A stretch of DNA of 64,000 nt from Ignavibacteria bacterium (lineage in GTDB: Bacteria; Bacteroidota; Ignavibacteria; Tepidaquicellales; OLB5). The DNA lies in contig JAFLBX010000002.1 of assembly GCA_017303675.1 (NCBI GenBank), positions 1,300,411 to 1,364,410 of the forward strand. Reading direction: 5' to 3'. The notes beneath the pieces are model-generated. The model had not been told where the DNA came from. It was given only the letters and a program-made list of their open reading frames with translations, and did no database searches. The position numbers and the translations under genes were made by a program. Every line of letters starts with the position of its first letter. Position 1 is the stretch's first letter. This document shows, one piece after another, positions 14,772-60,788 of this stretch.

Positions 14772-17390
14772 ATGAAATCAATACTTACTGTTTTCGTTAT
14801 CTTTTTATCCCTGCTAAATTCAATTGATATAAATTCACAGGATTTTAATCTCTTCAACCCCTCAAACGAATTATATTTATTTTCTGCATATGATGAAGGC
14901 TCAAATGCTTTCCGTTACAATCCCGCAGTATTGGGACTGGGACACCGGCTGAATTTTACCATTAATGCTTTAAATCACCAGGCATCATTCAACGGATTGA
15001 ATGAGCTTGATATTTCCATTAACGCTGGTTTTCTTGGGCTTGCATTCCGCAGATATACAGACAACAAAGATTTCACAACAAATTATGATTCTGATCTTTT
15101 TGGTAATCTGATTGAATATTCAGGTTTTGGCAGATTAAGCAGATATACTATCAGTACTTATTCAATGGGATTTGGATTTGGGAATAAATCATTATCAGCA
15201 GGTATTTTGCTTGAATTTCTTCACAGAAGCGGATTCGTTTCACCTGCAAATGTAAATTCAGGTTTCCCATCTTTTCGCGGGGGATTGGGAATTCTTTACA
15301 GGCCTAATCCACATTTATCATTTTCCTTTGTATATAATAGTGATGACGCGATGACAATAATGCATCACACTACAGATAAATTTACACTTGGCACAGCTAT
15401 AAGGCCTTTAAAAAACGATCGTTTGACATTAATGACTGATTTTTCTGCATTCAGGTATGGATCAAACTTTACTAAATACAACAAACTTAAAGCCGGGGCA
15501 GAACTAAAGATAGCCGATGGTTTATATCTGAATGTAAATTACACACGCAACCGGGAAGAAATTCGAAATGAATTTATTGGAGGCGGAATAAGAGTTGACT
15601 TCCCAAACGGCAGCTTCAGGTATAATCATATTTTTAATAATAGCAGAGAAAAATTAATTTATTATGATAACCTTTTTCCTGAATACAGTGTTTATAATAA
15701 TTCCGTAGGAAATAATTTCTCTTTCATAGGCTCACAATTCTCGTTATCATACAACATTGAACGCAGGAAAAGTTTAATACCTGAGAAGAAAAAAATAGTT
15801 GAAATAACACTCTCCGGTTCACTGCAGGATTACAACACAGAAGATGTTTTCTTCGGGCTTCTTGGCAAAGGTAAACGCAGTATCCACGAGGTAATTGGTG
15901 ATATTGATTATGCTGCCGCCGATCCCAGCGTAAAAGGGATGATACTTAAAATGTACCCCCTGGCATCAGGCAGGTTTGAAATAAACGCGGCAATAGAAGA
16001 GCTGACTGCATCTATGTCACGTTTCCGCTCAAAGAATAAGACAATCACTGTATATTTTCCTCAGGATGTTGGCCCCGGTGGCTATTATATTTCAACTTTT
16101 GCCGATGATATAGTTATGCCCGCCGAAGCTATCTTCTTTTACGGGCTCAGTATTAATGTCTTCAACTATAACAGCTTCCTTGAAAAATACGGAATAGACC
16201 TTCAGACATTTCATGCAGGAAAGTACAAGCTCACCTTCCAGGGCTTGCTGGATTCAACAACAGAAGAAGGCAAAGAAGTAATTAACCGTGTACTGGATAT
16301 TGTTTACGAAAAAATGCTTTCCAGAATTGTTACAGGCCGAAACCTGACACTTGATGATTACATGATTGAAAAGCTCTCACAGCCATTGACCGGCAGCGAA
16401 GCATACAGGCTGGGGCTTGTTGATAAGCTTGGGTGGTATGAAGATGCGAAAGAAATTGCAGCGGATAATTCACGAACCAATAATGTGGTGAGATCTTTTA
16501 ACAGGAGTGAATGGGATAACAGCTGGGGTGAACCGCCGCAAATAGCCGTTATCGGAGTGTACGCCAGCATTACAACAGGTGAAAGCGAGCCTCCCCCGCC
16601 GGTTTCACTGCCAATTCCGTTCGTAGGCGGAGGAAGATCGACCGGCAGTGAAACAGTAGTTAAGCAGCTTGAAGATGCCTTTGCAAATCCGAAAGTTAAG
16701 GCTATTGTGTTAAGGGTTGATTCAGGCGGCGGTTCAGCTTTGGGTTCCGCTGAAATTAATGCAGCAATTATAAGACTGAAGAAAAAATATAAGAAACCGT
16801 TCATAGTTTCCATGGGCGGCGCAGCGGCTTCCGGTGGATATTACGTATCAGCCAGCGCTGATAAAATTTTCTCTGATGAGCTCACTATTACAGGAAGTAT
16901 TGGAGTGTTTACTGCACGACCAAATCTCGACAGCCTTTTAAAAGGACAAAATATAAAAGTTGAGAATTTTAAGCGCGGCGAAAATTCAGATATAGGTTCT
17001 TTTTATAAAGAGCTTGATGAAAAAGAGATCGAAATAATTCAGGGTATTATTGACTATTATTATGACCGTTTCACCGAAGCAGTTGCTGAAGGCAGAAAAA
17101 TGACGCGTGAAGAAGCGGAAGAAGTTGCCCAGGGAAGGGTTTGGCTTGGTACTGATGCGTTCAACAAAAAGCTTGTGGATGAAATCGGCGGTCTGTATGA
17201 AGCTGTTAAATATGCAAAGAATAAATCAGGTATTTCAGGTAAGTATAAGATCGTTTATTATTCCGTTCCCGGAGGGAATAAAATCAATGAAATCATGACA
17301 TCTTCTGTTATTGGATATTTCCAGTCACATTTAATAGATATGCTGGGAATTGATGAATCTAACAGCGATGGGCTTGAAATAAAGTATTAA
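14772..17390 (+). CDS. sppA: Signal peptide peptidase SppA (S49, two domains) with a long N-terminal putative beta-barrel
   Basis: LRVDSGGGS, SMGGAAASGGYY (Ser), GKYK (Lys), TGSIGV, QGRVWLG; N-terminal ~330 aa with YNPAVLG and alternating strand pattern. Confidence 0.85.
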   Translation: MKSILTVFVIFLSLLNSIDINSQDFNLFNPSNELYLFSAYDEGSNAFRYNPAVLGLGHRLNFTINALNHQASFNGLNELDISINAGFLGLAFRRYTDNKDFTTNYDSDLFGNLIEYSGFGRLSRYTISTYSMGFGFGNKSLSAGILLEFLHRSGFVSPANVNSGFPSFRGGLGILYRPNPHLSFSFVYNSDDAMTIMHHTTDKFTLGTAIRPLKNDRLTLMTDFSAFRYGSNFTKYNKLKAGAELKIADGLYLNVNYTRNREEIRNEFIGGGIRVDFPNGSFRYNHIFNNSREKLIYYDNLFPEYSVYNNSVGNNFSFIGSQFSLSYNIERRKSLIPEKKKIVEITLSGSLQDYNTEDVFFGLLGKGKRSIHEVIGDIDYAAADPSVKGMILKMYPLASGRFEINAAIEELTASMSRFRSKNKTITVYFPQDVGPGGYYISTFADDIVMPAEAIFFYGLSINVFNYNSFLEKYGIDLQTFHAGKYKLTFQGLLDSTTEEGKEVINRVLDIVYEKMLSRIVTGRNLTLDDYMIEKLSQPLTGSEAYRLGLVDKLGWYEDAKEIAADNSRTNNVVRSFNRSEWDNSWGEPPQIAVIGVYASITTGESEPPPPVSLPIPFVGGGRSTGSETVVKQLEDAFANPKVKAIVLRVDSGGGSALGSAEINAAIIRLKKKYKKPFIVSMGGAAASGGYYVSASADKIFSDELTITGSIGVFTARPNLDSLLKGQNIKVENFKRGENSDIGSFYKELDEKEIEIIQGIIDYYYDRFTEAVAEGRKMTREEAEEVAQGRVWLGTDAFNKKLVDEIGGLYEAVKYAKNKSGISGKYKIVYYSVPGGNKINEIMTSSVIGYFQSHLIDMLGIDESNSDGLEIKY

Positions 17391-17401
17391 TTGAAAGTAA
17401 T

Positions 17402-17649
17402 TTTTGCGGGGAGAATTTACGAAGCAAATTCGAAGCGGCGATCTAAATTGTGGAAGTAATGCAATTTACATAAATTGAAAGTTTATGGTCTGGATTCTTC
17501 ATCGCTTCGCTCCTCAGAATGACAAACCTTTGCGAGGAAAAACTGCGTAGCAGTTTTGACGCGGCAATCTTATTTGTGGTAATGTGGGGATAGACGTATG
17601 AGGAAAGTTTATAGTCTGGATTCTTCGTCGCTTCGCTCCTCAGAATGAC
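17402..17649. repeat. Two tandem bipartite palindromic units (left arm TTTGCGRGGA-hairpin-GRCGYGGCAATCT, right arm GATTCTTCRTCGCTTCGCTCCTCAGAATGAC)
   Basis: 17477-17523 and 17603-17649 match at 45/47 positions; left arms at 17406-17444 and 17532-17570. Confidence 0.85.
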
Positions 17650-17721
17650 TAAACTTTTCCCACGGAACTTTCACGCCATTATAGGGGTATAAATCAATAA
17701 TAATTAATTTGTCATGTAAAT

Positions 17722-19023
17722 ATGAAAAACCTGGTATTTTTTGCCTCATTATTATTGATTACCGCAGTAATATATGCACAATCTCCCTACCGTAATATAA
17801 AAATTACAGATGAAAATTCACCAAGCGAAGTTACTATATCTTTTAATCCGGTAAATCCAATGAACCTGGTAGCGGCAGCTAATATTGAATCTTACTTCTA
17901 CAGCTTTGATGGCGGTCTCACATGGCAAATAAGAAAGCTTGAATCTACATTCGGTGTTTATGGTGACCCGTGCATAATTGCTGATGTGCGCGGCAATTTT
18001 TATTATTTCCATCTTTCCAATTCATATTCAGAAGGCGGTAAGTGGCTCGATAGAATTATTTGCCAGAAATCAGAAGACGGCGGCATATCATGGTCTAACG
18101 GAACATATATGGGAGCAAATCCGCCCCACCTGCAGGATAAAGAATGGGGAGCGGTTGACCAGACCTTTTCACCTTTCAGAAATAACATTTACTGCGCATG
18201 GACACAATGCGGGCAGCATAAATACAGCGAAGAAGGCACTGCATTAAATCCGCTTGACAGCGCCTCAAATATTATTTTCAGCTATTCAACTGATGGCGGT
18301 GAAACATGGGCAGAAAGAAAAAGGATAAACGAGCTATCAGGGGCAGAATGCTCCGATGCGGGAGCCACTACACTTGGTGTTGTGCCGTGTGTTGGACTCA
18401 ATGGTGAAGTTTATCTTACCTGGTGCTCGCCTTACGGACTAATGCTTGACCGTTCTACAGACGGAGGTATAACTTTCTGGGAAAAAGATGTTAAGGTAGC
18501 TGATCTTCCCGGTACTTTCAGGTTTAAGGTGCCCGGTGTTTACCGTACCTTCGGCTTTCCTTCAATGGTTTGTGATATGAGCAACGGCAGCAACCGCGGA
18601 ACTTTATATATTAGCTGGAGCGATCAGAAAAACGGGTATGAAAATACAGATGTATGGATAAGCAGCTCAACCAATGAAGGCATAACATGGGCTCCCCCGG
18701 TAAAAGTAAATGATGATACAGAGGCAAAACACCAGTTTTTTAACTGGATGACAATTGACCAGGTAACGGGCATTATTTATATTGTGTTTTATGACAGAAG
18801 GAATTACGATGATGATATGACTGATGTTTACCTGGCATCATCAAGTGATGGCGGAAAGACTTTTTTGAACGAAAGGATAAGTGATTCACCTTTCTACCCT
18901 CTGGCTGAAACATTTATGGGTGATTATACAAATGTAATTGCAGTAAACGGAATGGTAAGACCCATCTGGACACGGCTTGACAGCAACAAGCTAAGTATAT
19001 ATACAGCAATAATTGATAAATAG
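17722..19023 (+). CDS. Secreted BNR/sialidase-like protein, no T9SS CTD
   Basis: Signal peptide; GDP, QDKEW, STDGG, KVNDD, YDRR, FMGDY; ends at IYTAIIDK. Confidence 0.8.
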   Translation: MKNLVFFASLLLITAVIYAQSPYRNIKITDENSPSEVTISFNPVNPMNLVAAANIESYFYSFDGGLTWQIRKLESTFGVYGDPCIIADVRGNFYYFHLSNSYSEGGKWLDRIICQKSEDGGISWSNGTYMGANPPHLQDKEWGAVDQTFSPFRNNIYCAWTQCGQHKYSEEGTALNPLDSASNIIFSYSTDGGETWAERKRINELSGAECSDAGATTLGVVPCVGLNGEVYLTWCSPYGLMLDRSTDGGITFWEKDVKVADLPGTFRFKVPGVYRTFGFPSMVCDMSNGSNRGTLYISWSDQKNGYENTDVWISSSTNEGITWAPPVKVNDDTEAKHQFFNWMTIDQVTGIIYIVFYDRRNYDDDMTDVYLASSSDGGKTFLNERISDSPFYPLAETFMGDYTNVIAVNGMVRPIWTRLDSNKLSIYTAIIDK

Positions 19024-19074
19024 GTTGCAATTTTTTACAGGCATTCGTTCGTTTTTTCATATTACGTGATATCA

Positions 19075-19117
19075 TTTTGCGGGGAGAAATTGCGGAGCAA
19101 TTTCGACGTGGCAATCT
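19075..19117. repeat. Solo left arm of the bipartite palindromic element
   Basis: TTTTGCGGGGA-GAAATTGC-GGA-GCAATTTC-GACGTGGCAATCT. Confidence 0.75.
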
Positions 19118-19256
19118 TATCATTGCTGCAGCTTTACTATCACCTATAAATACAGGTTTTTTTGAGTTTTAAATTTCCATATAAATTCGTTTTCATTATC
19201 CCTTTAAAATCATAACTAAATTGAGTATTTTACGATATAATCATTAAATATCACAA

Positions 19257-20840
19257 ATGAAAACTACTATTGCTGTAATTTTATTATTCATTACCTCATC
19301 CATATACTCTCAGTCATCCTATACCAATATCCAGATAAGCGGAAACGGAGGCCCTAATGAACCTTCGATATGCGTAAATCCGAAAAATACCAATCAAATT
19401 GTAGCAGGCGCAAATACAGATAAAGTTTACCGCTCTTCAGATGGCGGGTTAACATGGACAAGCAGCATACTATCAGGTACATATACTGTGTGGGGAGACC
19501 CCTGCATTATTACCGATACACTTGGAAATTTTTATTACTTCCACTTGGTTAACGGCGCAAGCTTTATTGACAGAATGGGTGTAAATAAATCAACTAATGC
19601 TGGTGCAACATGGAATGCCGGTACATACTGGCAGTTCAATGGAAAGCAGCAGGATAAAGAATGGGCTATCACAGACTGGACCCACGGCCCGCGCGGAAAC
19701 TGGATGTATGTTGCGTGGACTGAGTTCGATGATTACGGAGTATCAAATCCTGCGGATAGTTCAAGAATATTGTTTGCCCGTTCAACTGATCAGGGGGCAA
19801 CTTTCACCGGTATTAAAAGGCTTAGCCGCTACGGCGGCAACTGTGTTGATGAAGATTATACCACGGAAGGTTCAGTTCCGGCAGTGGGACCTAACGGTGA
19901 AGTATATGTTGCATGGTCCGGTCCCCTAGGCGTTAACAACTTTAAAATATTTTTTGATAGATCAACCGATGGTGGTTCAACATGGCTTGAAAACGATATA
20001 GTTGCAGGCACTCAGCGCGGCGGCTGGGATTATGTTGTAGCCGGAATTTACAGATCAAACGGCCTCCCGATAACTTTATGCGATATCAGCAACTCGCCTT
20101 ACCGCGGAACAATTTATGTTAATTATACAGATAGCGCAGGTCCCGCTGACCACGATGTTATGCTTATCAAATCAACAGATGGCGGCAATACATGGAGCTC
20201 ACCGATAAGAATAAACGATGACCCGGCCGGAAAAGAACAGTTCTTCACATGGATGACAATTGACCAGGTTACAGGTCATTTATATTGTGTGTTTTATGAC
20301 AGGAGAAACTATTCAAACACACAAACAGATGTTTATATGGCACGCTCAACAAACGGCGGTGTTACATGGGTGAACGAAAGATTAAGCTCTTCACCTTTCA
20401 CACCGGCATCCAATATTTTCTTCGGTGATTATACCAACATATCAGCGCATAACGGAGTTGTAAGGCCTATATGGATCAGGCTGGTATCAGGTACTTTAAG
20501 CGTTTGGACAGCAATCATTAACTTCCCGGTTGGAGTTGAACCCATTTCCACTGAAATTCCTTCAGCATTCGCATTGAAGCAGAATTATCCCAATCCTTTC
20601 AACCCTGTTACGAGAATTGATTTTGACGTTCCCGCAACCGGCGGAAATGATTCACGTGATATTACAATAAAAATTTATGATGTGAACGGAAAAGAAGCTG
20701 CTGTTATTGTGAATGGCAAGCTTTCACCGGGTTCATATAAATATGAATGGGATGCTTCATCTTATCCCAGTGGTGTATATTTTTACCAGCTTTCATCAGG
20801 CAGTTACACAGAAACCAAAAAAATGATTCTAACCAAATAA
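19257..20840 (+). CDS. T9SS-secreted BNR/sialidase-like protein with type A CTD
   Basis: Same motif set as neighbours plus QNYPNPFNP CTD. Confidence 0.85.
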   Translation: MKTTIAVILLFITSSIYSQSSYTNIQISGNGGPNEPSICVNPKNTNQIVAGANTDKVYRSSDGGLTWTSSILSGTYTVWGDPCIITDTLGNFYYFHLVNGASFIDRMGVNKSTNAGATWNAGTYWQFNGKQQDKEWAITDWTHGPRGNWMYVAWTEFDDYGVSNPADSSRILFARSTDQGATFTGIKRLSRYGGNCVDEDYTTEGSVPAVGPNGEVYVAWSGPLGVNNFKIFFDRSTDGGSTWLENDIVAGTQRGGWDYVVAGIYRSNGLPITLCDISNSPYRGTIYVNYTDSAGPADHDVMLIKSTDGGNTWSSPIRINDDPAGKEQFFTWMTIDQVTGHLYCVFYDRRNYSNTQTDVYMARSTNGGVTWVNERLSSSPFTPASNIFFGDYTNISAHNGVVRPIWIRLVSGTLSVWTAIINFPVGVEPISTEIPSAFALKQNYPNPFNPVTRIDFDVPATGGNDSRDITIKIYDVNGKEAAVIVNGKLSPGSYKYEWDASSYPSGVYFYQLSSGSYTETKKMILTK

Positions 20841-20846
20841 AACCAA

Positions 20847-22124
20847 ATGATAAAAGAATTAATTTTGATCTTTTTGATCGTGCCCTCAGTTGTTTTAGCG
20901 CAGTTTAAGAATATTAAAGTTAATTCAATAAGCAACAGTCCCAACGAGGTTTCAATAGCAATAAATCCAAGGCACCCCAATAACATTATTGCGGGTGCCA
21001 ACCTGAACAATTATTATTATTCATTTGACCGCGGCAGTACATGGGTAAACAAGGAAATTGCCGATGGCAAGAACGGTGTTTGGGGTGACCCGGTACTTAT
21101 ATTTGATGTAAACGGTTCGGCTTATTTTTTTCATCTTTCCAGGCCTTCAAACTCCCAGTGGATAGACAGGATTGTATGCCAGCGCTCTACAGATGGCGGG
21201 ATGACATATGAAAATCCCGGGACATATATGGGGCTTAATCCCCCGAAAAAGCAGGATAAACCATGGGCATGCGTTGATTTTACTGACAGTAAATGGAAAA
21301 ATAATATTTACGTAACATGGACACAGTTCGATGCATATGACAGCCATAACCCGGAAGATAAATCAAATATTCATTTTTCCTTCAGCTCTGATGCAGGCTC
21401 TACATGGAGCGAAGCATTAAGAATAAATAAAATTTCAGGTGATTGTGTAGATTCATCTAATACCACAGAAGGTGCCGTTCCGTGCATCGGACCAAATGGT
21501 GAAATATTTGTAAGCTGGTCTGCGCATGATAAGCTTTATTTTGACCGCTCAACCGATGGCGGTGCAACGTGGCTTGAGGATGATATAATTGCGGGCAGCC
21601 AGTACGGCGGATGGGTATATGATATTGAAGGAATTTTCAGATGCAACGGTTTGCCAATTACCCAGTGTGATATCAGCAGTTCGCCTTATAAAGGCACCAT
21701 TTATATTAACTATTCTGACAGGCGAAACGGCGAAAACGACGTGGATGTTTTTTTGGTTAGATCAACTGACGGCGGAAATACATGGAGTGATGCCCTCAGA
21801 ATAAATGATGACCCAGTTGGGAACGGCAAACAGCAGTTCATGAGCTGGATGAATGTTGACCCCTTAACCGGGGCCGTAAATATAATATATTATGACAGGC
21901 GTGACCATGATGACTGGAATACTGATGTATATCTTGCACGCTCAACAGATGGCGGTGTGACATTTGAGAATAAAAAGATATCTGAAGAACCGTTCGTACC
22001 CGTAAAATCAGTTTTCTTTGGAGATTATATAGGGGTAAGCTCTTATAACAATTACACAGCCTGTATCTGGCAAAGGCTGGATAAAGGAAAACTCAGCATA
22101 ATATATGCTGGGAATCAATTTTAA
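20847..22124 (+). CDS. Secreted BNR/sialidase-like protein, no T9SS CTD
   Basis: Signal peptide; GDP, QDKPW, RINDD, YDRR, FFGDY; ends at IIYAGNQF. Confidence 0.8.
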   Translation: MIKELILIFLIVPSVVLAQFKNIKVNSISNSPNEVSIAINPRHPNNIIAGANLNNYYYSFDRGSTWVNKEIADGKNGVWGDPVLIFDVNGSAYFFHLSRPSNSQWIDRIVCQRSTDGGMTYENPGTYMGLNPPKKQDKPWACVDFTDSKWKNNIYVTWTQFDAYDSHNPEDKSNIHFSFSSDAGSTWSEALRINKISGDCVDSSNTTEGAVPCIGPNGEIFVSWSAHDKLYFDRSTDGGATWLEDDIIAGSQYGGWVYDIEGIFRCNGLPITQCDISSSPYKGTIYINYSDRRNGENDVDVFLVRSTDGGNTWSDALRINDDPVGNGKQQFMSWMNVDPLTGAVNIIYYDRRDHDDWNTDVYLARSTDGGVTFENKKISEEPFVPVKSVFFGDYIGVSSYNNYTACIWQRLDKGKLSIIYAGNQF

Positions 22125-22153
22125 CTATTAGTATTTACATTTAACACTTAATA

Positions 22154-23905
22154 ATGGCAGAAGAATTATTCGGCGAAAACGCAGGCTACACTGTAACGGC
22201 AAGGAAATGGCGTCCAAGGGAATTTGACGATGTTACTTCCCAGGAATTTATTACAAAAACTTTAAGGAATGCGATAAAGAATAACCGTATTTCACACGCA
22301 TATTTGTTTTCGGGTCCGCGCGGTGTAGGTAAAACTACTGTTGCCAGACTTCTTGCCAAATCATTAAATTGCCTGAACCGTAAACCTAACGGTGAGCCAT
22401 GTAATGAATGTGATAGCTGCAGAGAGATAATCAATGATAACCGGAACCACCCTGATGTGTTTGAAATTGACGGCGCATCTAACAGGAACATAGAAGATGT
22501 AAGGGAACTGAAGGAAAAAGTTAAATACGGTCCTGTTCGTTCCAGGTACAAGATCTTCATTATTGATGAAGTTCATATGTTAACCGGAGCTTCGTTCAAT
22601 GCGCTGCTTAAGACACTTGAAGAACCGCCGCCGTATGTTGTGTTCATATTCGCAACTACATCCCCCGAAAAAGTGCCGCTCACTATTTTAGGCAGATGCC
22701 AGAAATTTGATTTCAAGCGTCTGACCATTGAAGAAATATCTTCCCGGCTGAAATACATAGCCGAAAATGAAAAGATAAAGGTTGATAACGAATCATTGTT
22801 CTTTATTGCAAAAAAAGGCGATGGTTCAATGCGCGATGCCCAGGGCCTCTTTGATATGTCAGCAGCTTACTGCGATAATGATATTACATTCGAAAAGCTG
22901 AAGGCATTTTTCAACCTGGCTCAAAGTGATGTGTATTTCGGTATATCCGATCTTGTAAAGCAGAAAGATGCAAAAGGCCTGCTGAACTATTTTGACAGCC
23001 TGATGGATAAAGGTTATGATATGCAGATATTTCTTGATGGGCTTACAGAACATTACCGCAATCTTCTGATTGCATGCTCTACCGGAAGCGCTGAGCTTAT
23101 CATTGAGTCAGAACCTGTTAAGATAAAATATTCAGAAAATATCAGCAAATTCACTCAGCTTGAAATTATTAACTCACTTAAGCTTATACTTCAGACTGAA
23201 TATACATTCAAGTATTCTTCCAATCAGCGTACGCTGATTGAAGCGCTGCTTGTTGAACTGATAAAATTTACCGATACCCGTGAAATTTCACAGATACTCG
23301 AAGAGCTGAACCGTTTAAAATCCGGCGGGAGTACTTCTAATTTCAGCACCGGCAGTGCAGGTGAAAAGAAAAACGCTTCAGCACCTGAAAACAGAATACA
23401 GTATACATCTAAAAATGAAGCCCGTGTTAATGTAACTTACGATACAACACCACGTAAACCCGCAGAACCCAGCACACAGACTGTCAGCAGCACAGTAACA
23501 GAATCATCAGTACATACAATAAACCTGGCTGATGCTGCAAGCGACTTGAATACTCACTGGTTAAGCATTAAAGATCAGATTAAAACCGAGCGTAAATGGG
23601 TTTACAGCATCATTAAAGATACCACATTTGAGCAGGATGAAAAAATGAACCTGCTTATCAGGGTTGATGATACCAGCTACGAGCTGGTTGATGGCTACAA
23701 AGATTACCTCGCAGGAAAAATATCAAAATATTTCGGTGAATCATTAAGTATCGGCCTGGTAAAAAGCTCTGAGTTCATTTCCAGCTCATCAGGTGCAGGT
23801 TATATCAGCGAAGAATCCGCTGAAACAGGTAATGAACCAGATAATTTTGATAAGATCAGAAGTATATTACTAAAAGATTTTAACGCTAAAGAAATAAGTA
23901 AATGA
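22154..23905 (+). CDS. dnaX: DNA polymerase III subunit gamma/tau
   Basis: ARKWRP, GPRGVGKT Walker A, Cys4 zinc module, IIDEVHML, LLKTLEEPP. Confidence 0.95.
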   Translation: MAEELFGENAGYTVTARKWRPREFDDVTSQEFITKTLRNAIKNNRISHAYLFSGPRGVGKTTVARLLAKSLNCLNRKPNGEPCNECDSCREIINDNRNHPDVFEIDGASNRNIEDVRELKEKVKYGPVRSRYKIFIIDEVHMLTGASFNALLKTLEEPPPYVVFIFATTSPEKVPLTILGRCQKFDFKRLTIEEISSRLKYIAENEKIKVDNESLFFIAKKGDGSMRDAQGLFDMSAAYCDNDITFEKLKAFFNLAQSDVYFGISDLVKQKDAKGLLNYFDSLMDKGYDMQIFLDGLTEHYRNLLIACSTGSAELIIESEPVKIKYSENISKFTQLEIINSLKLILQTEYTFKYSSNQRTLIEALLVELIKFTDTREISQILEELNRLKSGGSTSNFSTGSAGEKKNASAPENRIQYTSKNEARVNVTYDTTPRKPAEPSTQTVSSTVTESSVHTINLADAASDLNTHWLSIKDQIKTERKWVYSIIKDTTFEQDEKMNLLIRVDDTSYELVDGYKDYLAGKISKYFGESLSIGLVKSSEFISSSSGAGYISEESAETGNEPDNFDKIRSILLKDFNAKEISK

Positions 23906-24795
23906 GCAAAGGCTGCAAAACACTTCCATTAAAGAAAAATTTCCTCGCAATTGAAAAAGAGTATTCAAACTATAAAAATTCAAAGGTTGTAATACTTTCT
24001 GCACCATATGAAAAAACCACGTCATACGGTAAAGGGACTGCAAAGGGTCCCGGCGCTATTTTAGAAGCTTCGCATTATGTTGAATTTTTTGATGAAGAGA
24101 CCGAAAAGCAGGTATGCTTTGATATCGGGATTGCCGCAATAGAACCAATGAAATTCGGAAAGCTAACAGGCAAAAAAGCCCTGGATCTTATCTACCGGAA
24201 TGTTGATGAGAATATCAGGAACGGAAAGTTTGTTATAACACTTGGCGGAGAGCACTCAATTAGCACTGCGCCAATAAAGGCGCATTATGATAATTACAGT
24301 GATCTTTCCATCCTGCATTTAGATGCGCATTCAGACCTGCGCGAAGAGTATGAGGGGTCTAAATATTCTCATGCATCATTTGCAGCCAGAGTTTCTGAGT
24401 TTACTACAGATATAACACAGGTAGGGATCCGTGCGCAGTGCAAAGAGGAGTTCGATTTTATTAAAGCAAAAGGTATAAATACCTTTTATGCCTTTCAAAT
24501 GCGCGACCGGGGTTTTGATGAAAAGCTTATCAATGATATAACCGGCACATTAAAGAAGAATGTTTATATTACTTTTGATGTGGATTATTTTGATCCATCA
24601 ATCATGCCTTCAACAGGTACACCCGAGCCGAATGGCTTTTATTGGGATGAAACAATGAGGCTGCTGAAGAAGGTTTGCGCTGAAAGAAACCTGGTTGGAT
24701 TTGATGTTGTTGAGCTTGCGCCGCAGAAAGATTATACTTTCCCTGACTTCTTAACAGCAAAGCTGATTTATAAGATATTGAATTATAAGTTTTAG
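23902..24795 (+). CDS. speB: Agmatinase (ureohydrolase family)
   Basis: LGGEHS, LDAHSD, TFDVDYFDPS, PSTGTPEP; ATGA overlap with dnaX stop. Confidence 0.85.
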   Translation: MSKGCKTLPLKKNFLAIEKEYSNYKNSKVVILSAPYEKTTSYGKGTAKGPGAILEASHYVEFFDEETEKQVCFDIGIAAIEPMKFGKLTGKKALDLIYRNVDENIRNGKFVITLGGEHSISTAPIKAHYDNYSDLSILHLDAHSDLREEYEGSKYSHASFAARVSEFTTDITQVGIRAQCKEEFDFIKAKGINTFYAFQMRDRGFDEKLINDITGTLKKNVYITFDVDYFDPSIMPSTGTPEPNGFYWDETMRLLKKVCAERNLVGFDVVELAPQKDYTFPDFLTAKLIYKILNYKF

Positions 24796-24817
24796 AAAGT
24801 TCTTTCTTGAGCTAAAT

Positions 24818-24850
24818 GCAGAGACGGCGCGGTAGGTCGTCTTTTTTTTT
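24818..24850 (+). terminator. GTAGAGACG-type palindrome acting as probable speB terminator
   Basis: GCAG-AGACGGC-GCGGTAG-GTCGTCT followed by a long T run. Confidence 0.55.
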
Positions 24851-24856
24851 GAAAAA

Positions 24857-24978
24857 TTTTGCGAGGAGAATTTGTACTGCAAATTCGGTGTGGTAATCTT
24901 TTTATAGTAAAGATAGGTTAATTTGTATTGGTAAATTGTCGTCTAGATTCTTCGCTCGCTTCGCTCACTCAGAATGAC
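24857..24978. repeat. Third bipartite palindromic unit
   Basis: Left arm 24861-24899, right arm GTCTAGATTCTTCGCTCGCTTCGCTCACTCAGAATGAC at 24941-24978. Confidence 0.8.
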
Positions 24979-25028
24979 AGAGATATTCCCGATTCAATCG
25001 GGATTGGTTTGAGTCGCTATTTTGGCAT

Positions 25029-25133
25029 AAAAAAAGGCAGGCACAAGTGCCTGCCTGAAAACTAGCCATCCCAATTATTCTAAAAATTCTTTGGGCTGCT
25101 AAACGAAGCTTTTGCGTAGTTTAGCGGAGAGGG
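25029..25133. repeat. Direct repeat copy 1 (tRNA 3' end + hairpin + terminator)
   Basis: About 6 mismatches over ~103 bp versus 25509-25611. Confidence 0.9.
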
Positions 25134-25193: not shown

Positions 25194-25472
25194 TCAGATT
25201 AAATCATTAGCATTGGGTTTCAATACAGGTTTCTGTAAAATCCTTTTAAACAATACGGCTTTTCCTGAACCTGTCTTGAAATATCTTTCTAGGTTTCTCG
25301 CCTGACTTTCAGTTTTTACTCCAATAAACGCCTCAAACTCGAAAGGTTTATAATGTTTCGTTGATTGAGCTAATCCTTCATTATGTTCCAGCAATCTTCT
25401 CTTTAAATTGTTGGTTGAACCAATATATCGAAAATTTGAATTTATACTCTTCAATATGTATACGTACCACAT
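25194..25472 (-). CDS. Small standalone GIY-YIG nuclease
   Basis: YVYIL...YIGST, RRLLEHN (Arg), LERYFK (Glu); 92 aa. Confidence 0.85.
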   Translation of the reverse strand: MWYVYILKSINSNFRYIGSTNNLKRRLLEHNEGLAQSTKHYKPFEFEAFIGVKTESQARNLERYFKTGSGKAVLFKRILQKPVLKPNANDLI

Positions 25473-25508
25473 AATTATTGGATTAATATTTTTTATATGT
25501 TTTAAAAT

Positions 25509-25611
25509 AAAAAGGCAGGCACAAGTGCCTGCCTAAAAACTAGCCATACCAATTATTCAAAAAATTGTTTGGCCTGCTAAACGAAGCTTTAGCGTAGTTT
25601 AGCGGAGAGGG
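25509..25611. repeat. Direct repeat copy 2, overlapping the tRNA-Ser 3' end
   Basis: AAAAAGGCAGGCACAAGTGCCTGCCT...GCTAAACGAAGCTTTAGCGTAGTTTAGCGGAGAGGG. Confidence 0.9.
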
Positions 25612-25692
25612 AGGGATTCGAACCCTCGATAGAGGTTAACCCCCTATGACGGTTTAGCAAACCGTTGGTTTGAGCCACTCACCCACCTCTCC
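25603..25692 (-). tRNA. tRNA-Ser(GCT), CCA not encoded
   Basis: GGAGAGG/CCTCTCC acceptor, ACGGT-TTGCTAA-ACCGT anticodon arm, long variable arm, GGTTCGAATCC. Confidence 0.95.
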
Positions 25693-53518: not shown

Positions 53519-54988
53519 TTAATCATGGTTCCGTTTTCTTGGCACATACTCACCGTTTGATTCAATTGCTCTTGCATACTCGCTGTTCCAGCTTTTATAA
53601 AAGATGTCACGCGCTCTCTGCGTAAACTTTTCGCTTTCCACAACCAATCCAACATTTCGTGATTCATAAAAATAATCATGGCTCATGTTGCTTGTGCCTA
53701 TCCATGTGTAACTATCTGCTGTAATGAATTTACAATGCTCTACCCTTGCATACGGAATAAATCCGCCTGAATAGTCAGGTATAGAAGTATATCTCACTTC
53801 AAAATTTGGATATTTGATAAGCTCTTTAAAATGCTCAACAGCGGTTTTGCTTAAATTCCAGTCTGATACCAGCAGCTTTACCTTCACACCCCTTTTAGTT
53901 GCATTAATCAGAGCGGTATCAACTTCTTCCCAGTAGCCATCTTTTGTTACGGGATTATATGAGAGGAATTGTAAAGTAATTTCATTGGCAGCATAATTTA
54001 TCATAAATATGATCTCTTCAAGATCTTTATCTCCGTTAATATGGTAAAACTCTTTTGGACTTATTGTTGGTTTTACGTGTATTGAATCTCCATAAATACT
54101 TTTTAATATCCTGCAATATGGTTTATTTATAGTATAAATTGGCAGATCCCAGCTTTTGCCGTCATTTATTTCTGAATACTTCCAATCCTCGTTAAATATA
54201 TCTGAATATATTTTGATAAGATCCCTGTCTCCTGAAATTCTTATACCAAGCTCATGAATATGTTTTAATGCCCGCCAGTCAAAATTTTGCGAGCCAATGA
54301 AAACTTCACTGTCATCAACGATAAAGAATTTCGCATGCTGTATTCCCCCGGCAAGCGATTTAAAATCTATTACATGTTTAGTTATGTTTTGTGATTGTTG
54401 TTCCAGCCATGTTACATCATCAGGATATGTCCTGAACATTTCACCATCAACTATTATACGGACTATTACTCCCCTATTAGCAGCAGCAACAATTGCATTC
54501 AGCACTGTATCAAGCGGCTCGCCTTTTTCATTTGAGATATAGAATTGCTCTATATCAAGGGTTTTTTGGGCGGAGTTTATCATTTCCAGCCATACTTCCT
54601 GGGTGTTGCGGATATCGGGATTATCAAGTGTAGTCTCAACGGGAATGCTTTCAACAAGCTCAATATTATTTTCCTGAGAATATAATACTGAGCAAATTAA
54701 TACTATTGAAAGTACAACTTTTGCGAGTGAAGTATTGAGCCTGCGAAATACGAAGCGAAGCAATCCTATTAATAAAGCGTTATATGGATAAGATTGCTTC
54801 CCCAACGGGGTAAACGTCGCTTTGCTCCTCGCAAATAAGTTTATTTTTGCGAGGAATAAATCGAGCTTGCGAGATTTATTCCGAAGCAATCTCATTTGAA
54901 TAAAATTGTTATTTAATATCATGGGTTCTATCATGCTAAAGATTCCCGCCTTCGCGCCTGCCTGCAGCAGGCAGGGGAATAAAGTCAT
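53519..54988 (-). CDS. Phospholipase D superfamily protein (PLD3/4-like), secreted; true start uncertain
   Basis: Two HKD motifs (HAKFFIVD, HCKFITAD); LVESIP, IGSQNFDWR; first ~90 codons are repeat-derived. Confidence 0.85.
   Translation of the reverse strand: MTLFPCLLQAGAKAGIFSMIEPMILNNNFIQMRLLRNKSRKLDLFLAKINLFARSKATFTPLGKQSYPYNALLIGLLRFVFRRLNTSLAKVVLSIVLICSVLYSQENNIELVESIPVETTLDNPDIRNTQEVWLEMINSAQKTLDIEQFYISNEKGEPLDTVLNAIVAAANRGVIVRIIVDGEMFRTYPDDVTWLEQQSQNITKHVIDFKSLAGGIQHAKFFIVDDSEVFIGSQNFDWRALKHIHELGIRISGDRDLIKIYSDIFNEDWKYSEINDGKSWDLPIYTINKPYCRILKSIYGDSIHVKPTISPKEFYHINGDKDLEEIIFMINYAANEITLQFLSYNPVTKDGYWEEVDTALINATKRGVKVKLLVSDWNLSKTAVEHFKELIKYPNFEVRYTSIPDYSGGFIPYARVEHCKFITADSYTWIGTSNMSHDYFYESRNVGLVVESEKFTQRARDIFYKSWNSEYARAIESNGEYVPRKRNHD
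54719..54892. repeat. Three arms of the TTTGCGAG...GAAGCAATC repeat family inside the PLD 5' region
   Basis: Arms at 54719-54766, 54791-54835 (inverted), 54845-54892. Confidence 0.8.
54941..54980. repeat. Nested palindromes: CCTGCCTGC-A-GCAGGCAGG inserted in GATTCCCGCCTTCGCG/GGAAT
   Basis: Removing 54957-54975 restores ATTCCCGC-CTTC-GCGGGAAT. Confidence 0.8.
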
Positions 54989-60713: not shown

Positions 60714-60788
60714 TTTGCGAGGAACGAAGTGACGAAGCAATCTTATCAATGATTTAATAAAATGAGATTGCTTCGCTACGCTCGCAAA
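60714..60788. repeat. Compact inverted repeat of the TTTGCGAGG...GAAGCAATCT family between convergent genes
   Basis: TTTGCGAGGAACGAAGTGACGAAGCAATCT-N21-AGATTGCTTCGCTACGCTCGCAAA. Confidence 0.8.

Follow-up and report, generated by a model that had tools for sequence, protein, structure and literature searches.

A 64,000-nucleotide stretch of the genome of an uncultured member of the Ignavibacteria from activated sludge (hereafter the window; the source genome is 3.65 Mb with 38% G+C, in two contigs, at an estimated completeness of 100%) contains three units that each measure 118 nt. Units u1 (17406-17523, starting with GCGGGGA and ending with AGAATGAC) and u2 (17532-17649, starting with GCGAGGA) are neighbors, u3 (24861-24978, also starting with GCGAGGA) lies ∼7 kb from them, and a solo left arm of 39 nt occupies 19079-19117. 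A first-pass annotation had described these three units and the solo arm, with coordinates and motifs that proved exact, and had suggested that structure and arm spacing, not sequence, are selected, as in a REPIN- or MITE-like element (REP doublet-forming hairpin; miniature inverted-repeat transposable element), a recombination site or a structured noncoding RNA. We consider it probable that each unit is instead a composite repeat of the REP/BIME type (repetitive extragenic palindrome; bacterial interspersed mosaic element), that is, a head-to-head hybrid dimer, tags outward, of two related DNA hairpin modules. The repeat is a previously undescribed family within this known kind, in the CGTC-tagged superfamily, and not a new class of element.

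All three units have the same layout, with a left arm on the plus strand, a spacer, and a right arm on the minus strand. In u1, the left arm (17403..17444) is a module of the type that we call G-long, TTTGCGGGGA-(GAATTTAC GAA GCAAATTC)-GAAGCGGCGATCT, which is recognized by a covariance model with an E-value of 3e-14; the spacer of 43 nt covers 17445..17487, and the right arm (17488..17524) is a T-type, TGTC-tagged REP module whose minus-strand sequence is TGTCATTCTGAGGAGCGAAGCGATGAAGAATCCAGAC. Unit u2 has the left arm TTTGCGAGGA-(AAAACTGC GTA GCAGTTTT)-GACGCGGCAATCT (17529..17570), again a 43-nt spacer (17571..17613), and a T-type right arm (17614..17649) whose tag reads AGTC. The left arm of u3 is TTTGCGAGGA-(GAATTTGT ACT GCAAATTC)-GGTGTGGTAATCT (24858..24899), its spacer (24900..24939) shows no recognizable similarity to the u1 and u2 spacers, and its T-type right arm is a long form (24940..24979, minus-strand sequence TGTCATTCTGAGTGAGCGAAGCGAGCGAAGAATCTAGACG). 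As had been noticed, this right arm is 2 nt longer than the other two (GAGTGA..GAGCGA versus GAGGA..GACGA) and the spacer is shorter (40 nt versus 43 nt). The spacers also differ as strongly as reported, with identities of 0.49-0.57 between u3 and u1/u2, which is the level of shuffled sequences (0.55 ± 0.05). With the conserved flanks counted, the units extend over 17403-17528, 17529-17654 and 24858-24983, and u1 and u2 form an exact tandem with a period of 126 nt (direct-repeat family D12). A profile of the three units, run against the whole 3.65-Mb genome with nhmmer, gives E-values of 3e-28 to 4e-36. No promoter-like or terminator-like sites were found inside the units.

The four left arms of the window (the solo arm, a G-long module at 19076..19117 on the plus strand, lies in the interval between the genes BNR1 and BNR2) are 39-nt elements with an 8-3-8 hairpin, as originally described. 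Their loops are GAA (u1), GTA (u2), GGA (solo arm) and ACT (u3), with the caveats that the u1 stem (GAATTTAC/GCAAATTC) contains one A.C mismatch and the u3 stem, with its ACT loop, is closed by a T.G wobble. The covariance model finds these four arms with E-values of 6e-17 to 8e-14, and the u2 arm, folded as DNA, has an energy of −9.0 kcal/mol (z = −2.3). Long-stem arms were also found, by BLAST and then with covariance model R1, in the sister species G002, G010, G012, G016, G017 and G019 and in G041 from another genus, and ten of these additional copies from related genomes bring the alignment on which R1 is based to 14 copies. In this alignment 92.8% of the stem cells are paired, two-sided changes occur at five pairs, the pairing score is reached by none of 500 shuffles, and slid controls remain at or below 54%. 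The apical stems of the relatives are entirely different from those of the window (GAATTTTCC/GGAAAATTC, GAATTTTTCC/GGGAAAAATTC and GTCCCGGG/CCCGGGAC). The compensatory stem changes proposed from the four window arms are thereby confirmed on independent sequences, and it is by such changes that the left-arm stem is kept intact.

The genome-wide collection of copies that the first-pass annotation had recommended gives different results for the two arms. Within the source genome, the left arm is found only at the four window sites (nhmmer, whole genome), whereas the right arm matches dozens of sites and belongs to a family of ∼80 copies with the form TGTC-ATyCT-GA..GC-GNA-GC..GA-AGrAT-CCAG. Iteration of the search yields a catalogue of ∼130 modules (53 C, 26 T, 47 G and 4 G-long), with lengths of 22-41 nt except for a few that are longer through nested inserts. 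The T type, TGTCATTCTGAG(T)GA-GCGAAGC-GA(G)CGAAGAATCYAGAC, has the outer stem ATTCT/AGAAT, a TGTC tag and a CCAG tail, and the right arm is a standard member of it; the C type is TGTCATCCTGA-GCGMAGC-GAAGGATCCAG; and the G type, TTTGCGAGGA-GCGAAGC-GACGAAGCAATCTCAT, has the outer stem TTGC/GCAA and occurs in a short form of 27 nt as well. The fold shared by T and C modules was derived from 22 aligned copies, and contains nine Watson-Crick pairs, of which 97.3% of the cells are paired. Two-sided changes are seen at five of these nine pairs (24 cells); the score is reached in none of 500 shuffles, and the pairing of slid controls stays at or below 49%. The outer G.A columns vary little or not at all, the stem pairs A5-T35 and T6-A34 are invariant, the tail is C-C/T-A-G, and the TGTC tag is present in 21 of the 22 copies, with u2 (AGTC) as the exception.

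Both arms are built on a common plan, which consists of an outer stem of 4-5 bp, one or two tandem G.A blocks between Watson-Crick pairs, and an apical GC-GNA-GC hairpin. Among 89 modules with a GA-xy-NNN-y'x'-GA core, the loop is a G-N-A triloop closed by C-G (GAA, GCA or GTA) in 82. The base of the left arm, TTTGCGAGGA ... GACGYGGCAATCT, is that of the G family, and the GCGAAGC tip is also retained, as GCGTAGC in u2, GCGGAGC in the solo arm and ACGAAGC in u1. What distinguishes the left arm from a short G module is an extra A+T-rich stem of 6 bp beneath the apical mini-hairpin, as is seen when the short form TTTGCGAGGA-(GCGAAGC)-GACGAAGCAATCT is set against the u2 arm, TTTGCGAGGA-(AAAACT GCGTAGC AGTTTT)-GACGCGGCAATCT. 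Judged by its sequence, the left arm is therefore a long-stem variant of a sister family of the right arm, the G family with its 47 short copies. The left arm in the source genome is untagged (TTTTGC), and G-type modules from metagenomes elsewhere (TGTCATTGCGAG...GGCAATCT) do have the tag, so that G, T and C modules form one superfamily whose members differ mainly in the outer stem (ATTGC, ATTCT, ATCCT, ATGCT and ACCCT are among the variants). At seven metagenome loci (L185, L191, L203, L217, L202, L208 and L212) there are arrays that mix TGTCATTGCGAG...GGCAATCT, TGTCACCCTGAG...GGGT and ...GATTCTTCGC..CAGAATGACA modules, and thus G, T and C types co-occur as mosaics well beyond the Ignavibacteria.

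The two arms of a unit differ in orientation: the GNA strand is the plus strand in the left arm and the minus strand in the right arm, and the tag ends of both point outward. Because the arms face each other on opposite strands, the units are best read as hybrid head-to-head REP dimers, comparable to BIMEs. This arrangement is also the most common one in the genome, where 43 adjacent module pairs comprise 23 head-to-head, 12 tail-to-tail and 8 head-to-tail pairs. T modules also take turns with C modules in arrays whose linkers are 17-18 nt and ∼75 nt long; two such arrays are located at C2:859217-861348 and C2:1092022-1093093. By a crude gene call, 122 of 130 modules (∼94%) are intergenic, and their density per kb of intergenic DNA is 0.75 in convergent, 0.25 in tandem and 0.10 in divergent regions, a ∼7.5-fold difference between convergent and divergent. 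Genome-wide, the modules have no sense/antisense bias. The GC skew of the two contigs shows no clear origin and terminus against which a replication-strand bias could be read.

The closest known relatives of these modules are the REPs of the CGTC-tagged superfamily (Di Nocera, De Gregorio & Rocco 2013, PMC3733652), to which Neisseria dRS3 and Rickettsia RPE-4 and RPE-6 belong. Members of that superfamily are palindromes of 20-40 nt whose tag is CGTC, TGTC or CCTC, whose first two stem positions are A/T, and whose tail is CCA; they form mostly head-to-head dimers with spacers of 20-100 nt, including heterodimers and hybrid dimers, and they are extragenic, biased toward gene 3' ends and convergent or unidirectional intergenic regions, and served by no dedicated transposase (PMC3733652). 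The right arm and the T/C modules share with them the TGTC tag, a stem whose first two pairs are invariably A-T and T-A, and the CCA(G) tail, and the modules of this genome as a whole are likewise dispersed short palindromes, predominantly in head-to-head dimers, with hybrids, a 3'-end bias and no dedicated transposase. The published families have uninterrupted stems of 8-9 bp and loops of 4-5 nt (for example VIPAKAGI of Chlorobium, GTCATTCCCGCGAAAGCGGGAATC; PMC3733652), whereas the stem here is broken by one or two invariant tandem G.A blocks and capped by a 3-nt GNA loop, the apical stems can be extended or contain nested hairpins, and the left arm is untagged in the source genome. The 2013 survey recorded CGTC repeats in five phyla and did not cover the Ignavibacteria (PMC3733652). 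Our full-text searches of the literature found no paper that contains the module sequence, and none that treats REP, REPIN or RAYT (REP-associated tyrosine transposase) together with Ignavibacteria. The family thus adds to the Ignavibacteria a REP for which no description was found, with a fold made of tandem G.A pairs and GNA triloops in place of a plain G+C stem.

Two further comparisons concern the layout and the core of the modules. The BIMEs of E. coli and other enterobacteria are mosaics of Y and Z REPs in alternating orientation, joined by type-specific linkers. The present repeats resemble them in having two hairpin types that alternate in orientation, class-specific linkers, and intergenic dimers or arrays that often follow genes, and differ in sequence, the modules having no relation to the REPs of E. 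coli. At the core of either arm is GC-GNA-GC between GA/GA steps, the motif of the d(GCGNAGC) DNA mini-hairpins which Hirao and colleagues reportedly found to be extraordinarily stable, with tandem sheared G.A pairs; those are physical-chemistry models and phage origin motifs, while here the core lies within a dispersed repeat family.

Of the three options first offered for the units, the REPIN/MITE-like one comes nearest, but neither term fits in its strict sense. Like REPINs (Bertels & Rainey 2011, PMC3116915; PMC3337134), the units are inverted REP doublets with a spacer, the doublet is apparently the unit copied, persistence at orthologous sites is long, and the genome has several RAYT-like Y1 genes. 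Unlike in REPINs, the arms belong to different module types and do not combine into one long hairpin, none of the RAYT genes has T, C or G modules as its flanking hairpins, and the left-arm/T doublet has only 3-4 copies, all at one locus. There are 11 Y1_Tnp matches in the genome (for example C1:483378-483725, C2:430890-431231, C2:920023-920367, C2:21133-21477 and C1:587270-587611), including six strong RAYT-like genes, each of which is flanked by its own G+C-rich hairpins and not by T, C or G modules. As an aside, 11 RAYT/IS200-like matches in 3.65 Mb represent an unusually rich set of REP systems. Three of the six RAYT-like genes have a G module at 459, 789 or 2169 nt, none of which is the flanking hairpin; the chance that a random point has a module within 2.5 kb is 0.10, and this proximity is suggestive at most, since those neighborhoods are rich in all repeats. 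No recurrent gene bracketed by inverted modules, as would be expected of an autonomous element, was found. Ends of IS200/IS605 elements and palindrome-associated transposable elements (PATEs) are ruled out because the GNA strands of the two hairpins are on opposite strands and not on the same one.

The history of the units can be followed at orthologous sites. The plus-strand gene order at the locus is sppA (peptidase S49, 14772-17390), u1 and u2, BNR1 (17722-19023), the solo arm, BNR2 (with a type IX secretion system, or T9SS, tail), BNR3, dnaX, speB (ending at 24795), a terminator-like hairpin, and u3. Sister species G002 has the same gene order, with left arms at the sppA-BNR1, BNR1-BNR2 and post-speB sites as in the source genome (G000), and additional arrays ahead of sppA and elsewhere on other contigs. 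All left arms at these sites and arrays of G002 are followed by GGGCTAAAGCCC and CCCCGCC..GGCGGGG hairpins, and not by a spacer and a T module. In G010, G017 and G019, a solo arm lies ∼95 nt upstream of BNR1, and relative to these three the window has ∼77 extra nt, corresponding to spacer plus T module, directly after GGCAATCTT. In G012, in G016 and at a second locus of G002, a long-stem arm is paired with a reversed short G module 12-15 nt away. Left arms are thus present at orthologous sites in at least five species while their neighbors differ, so that the arms are ancient and stay in place and each species has partners of its own. Further left-arm/T dimers were found neither in 116 related genomes nor in a metagenome scan, whose 45 stretches included none of the sought dimers and were mostly coding sequence or other repeat arrays; the 118-nt copies are therefore the three of the window plus one strain variant. 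The same order-wide scan of 116 related genomes found the T-C dimer in the source genome only.

The strain variant comes from the metagenomic strain X26, which is ∼95% identical to the source. Its u1 has one change in the left arm, two in the right arm and 19 in the 43-nt spacer, which is u2-like and aligns without gaps. At the BNR1-BNR2 site, where the window has an arm alone, X26 has arm, spacer, T module and arm, and the unit at this site is, by our own count, again 118 nt long. An apparent exact match of the u1 arm to the solo arm in Logan contigs was contradicted by another comparison and has been set aside. Strain differences in unit number, together with mosaic spacers, indicate unequal crossing-over and gene conversion between units. 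Both processes hold the register of the sequences that they exchange, and the length of the unit is therefore kept automatically.

These observations suggest how the units might have arisen. The dimer, and not the single arm, would be the unit copied; its spread within the 7.5-kb locus, and its uniform length, would come from tandem duplication and gene conversion seeded at pre-existing left arms, and fresh transposition would not be needed for this local spread. For the first genome-wide dispersal of the modules, the likeliest candidate is an HUH (Y1) enzyme that recognizes single-strand hairpins and acts in trans. The elements may be largely selfish or neutral DNA, with at most the generic side effects of REPs, for example protection of mRNA 3' ends by co-transcribed copies, or the binding of a DNA-wrapping protein.

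Several observations weigh against this explanation. Two dimer classes retain their length although their spacers are dissimilar, and descent alone is no obvious explanation for this. Genome-wide, no transposase gene adjoins any T, C or G module, so mobility is inferred rather than shown. Left arms are conserved at orthologous sites and mostly sense to the flanking genes (∼7 independent loci versus 1), and both features would also fit a function. Finally, nearest-neighbor energies of the right arms are only −0.8 to −1.9 kcal/mol, not better than those of shuffles, and the right-arm fold rests on covariation because G.A tandems and GNA loops are not covered by the standard energy parameters. 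Such tandems and loops are known to be stable, and the right-arm fold leans on that stability as well.

Across the wider family, the spacing of the arms is broad overall and specific to each class: 7-22 nt for G-G dimers, 73-78 nt for T-C dimers (8 copies), and 40-43 nt for a long-stem left arm with a T module (3 copies). Class-specific spacing is what copy-and-recombine descent predicts for each dimer type, and selection on length is therefore not required; the part of the original proposal that concerns stem structure is supported by covariation. However, the T-C class, in two genomic clusters, also keeps its length without spacer similarity (identity 0.52-0.62 versus 0.52 ± 0.03 for shuffled spacers), so that a length constraint may exist. 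By analogy with E. coli, where gyrase and IHF (integration host factor) span or wrap DNA at BIMEs, the dimer, as double-stranded DNA or as a cruciform, might be bound by a protein that spans or wraps DNA of a fixed length and so sets the distance between the arms whatever the spacer sequence. This would account for the 118 nt of the three left-arm/T units and of the fourth in the related strain after their spacers lost similarity, for T-C spacers of 74-78 nt in 8 copies that between clusters are no more alike than shuffles, and for the presentation of the two GNA loops on opposite strands. We nevertheless regard it as quite unlikely: the copies are few and partly tandem or recombining, the lengths differ between dimer classes, no protein partner is known, and neither dimer type was found in any of the 116 related genomes. 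With an effective sample of 2-3 per class, we count the constancy of length as unexplained and not as demonstrated. Rather improbable, too, is a role of the left arm, alone or together with its partner, as an exapted cis-acting RNA hairpin in the sppA/BNR/dnaX-speB cluster (a 3'-end stabilizer, processing site or insulator), with the right arm carried along incidentally. Left arms are indeed found at the same three intergenic sites in both G000 and G002, and upstream of BNR1 in G010, G017 and G019; the arms of this cluster are all sense, independent loci number ∼7 sense versus 1 antisense, and the stem covaries. Yet orthologous persistence is typical of REPs and REPINs too, long-stem arms are also found at unrelated loci, in divergent regions and once in antisense, and the short G modules have no sense bias (9 sense, 14 antisense). 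At the RNA level, two metatranscriptome contigs that are identical to the window run from the 3' end of sppA into u1 (17234-17498 and 17305-17520), where they stop because the repeat breaks the assembly; this weakly suggests that u1 is co-transcribed with sppA, at a depth of ∼2, in contigs that have no strand information and may reflect DNA carry-over.

Unit u3 bears on the same question, since it lies past one terminator-like hairpin with a T-run, at the end of the speB operon (24820..24850, plus strand), and ahead of a second one that belongs to a convergent minus-strand GIY-YIG gene (25029..25056, minus strand). No metatranscriptome contig covers this region, which speaks neither for nor against transcription. 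The position of u3 between convergent terminators also lends no support to the structured noncoding RNA first suggested for the units, nor do the whole-unit RNA folds, which on both strands have z values of −0.2 to −1.4, no better than shuffles, and contain no consistent pairing between left and right arm. Scans of the units with Rfam 15 gave no match at the gathering threshold or at E ≤ 10. CUGA..GA..GAA strings in the units had brought two known RNA motifs to mind, neither of which stands up to inspection: the hammerhead ribozyme, whose core (CUGANGA-stem-GAAA) is not satisfied, and the K-turn, whose 3-nt bulge is absent. A MITE, or an attC-like site for site-specific recombination, moved by a DDE transposase or an integrase, would have the bipartite structure, variable center and roughly constant length of the units, and is very improbable, in fact largely refuted. 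The ends are not mutual inverted repeats (TTTGCGAGGA... versus ...CAGAATGACA), and the modules occur singly, as dimers and as arrays in all orientations. Target duplications, which the first-pass annotation had proposed to look for at the flanks, are absent from the comparison of filled with partly empty orthologous sites, and specifically from the sppA-BNR1 site of the window against G010 and G017. The recombination site found no support, either, as the genes between the units are housekeeping genes in conserved synteny; for an integron cassette array in particular, the interval consists of sppA, three BNR paralogues, dnaX and speB, an order that G002 shares, and an integrase was not specifically searched for. 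The 118-nt anomaly is in our reading explained as ordinary repeat biology, and is not worth pursuit as a new RNA gene or recombination system.

For the REP field, the locus has modest value. At least 120 stretches contain the exact T/C core, TCATYCTGA..GCGNAGC..GAAGRATCYAG, and they represent more than 15 bacterial phyla among the matches listed, namely Acidobacteriota, Chloroflexota, Planctomycetota, Verrucomicrobiota, Fibrobacterota, Nitrospirota, Gemmatimonadota, Patescibacteria, several proteobacterial classes, Firmicutes, Actinobacteria, Ignavibacteria, Kapaibacteria, Chlorobiales and others. On the same matches, the range of the CGTC-tagged superfamily is extended from five to more than 15 phyla. 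The locus also illustrates cleanly how hairpin arms stay at orthologous sites while the partners next to them change from species to species, and how a dimer length is kept while the spacer sequence is lost; partner swapping and length retention both bear on how REPs without a transposase spread and on whether dimer geometry is functional. It is conceivable, though unlikely, that the GA-clamped GNA-triloop hairpin and its length-keeping pairing on opposite strands constitute a pan-bacterial structural DNA signal, read by a conserved host or mobile-element protein that measures the distance between arms. The putative reader may be, for instance, a DNA-wrapping enzyme or a dimeric binder of single-strand hairpins. 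Such a signal would explain the presence of a near-identical module of 27-33 nt in more than 15 phyla among the matches listed, and the constant length of two dimer classes whose spacers no longer have any similarity.

Elsewhere in the window, the family of the left arm is represented by a head-to-head dimer of two short G modules at 60714..60788 (a plus-strand module of 33 nt and a minus-strand module of 27 nt, separated by 15 nt), and by a minus-strand G module at 54788..54835 that has a small extra hairpin, CCCCAACGGGG, nested in its 3' half. C modules with extra palindromes nested in the apical loop, such as TCCCGCAAAAAATTTTGCGGGA, are found at C1:2014596-2014654, C2:1012562-1012611 and C2:859348-859395, and the hairpin tip appears to be a hot spot of insertion or stem growth.

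The genes around the units contain repeats of their own. Three tandem BNR/Asp-box paralogues fill 17722-22124 in the sppA-dnaX interval, one of them with a T9SS C-terminal sorting domain, and the internal SxDxGxTW repeats of these proteins are the source of most direct-repeat families in the window. Beyond u3, a 116-nt direct repeat (25018-25133 and 25496-25611, 90% identical) flanks a GIY-YIG gene that encodes 92 amino acids (open reading frame 25194-25472, minus strand). Its second copy overlaps the 3' end of a tRNA gene (25603-25692, minus strand), and both copies contain the hairpin GGCAGGCACAAGTGCCTGCC. The region looks like a small cassette inserted beside the tRNA gene, with the adjoining sequence duplicated.

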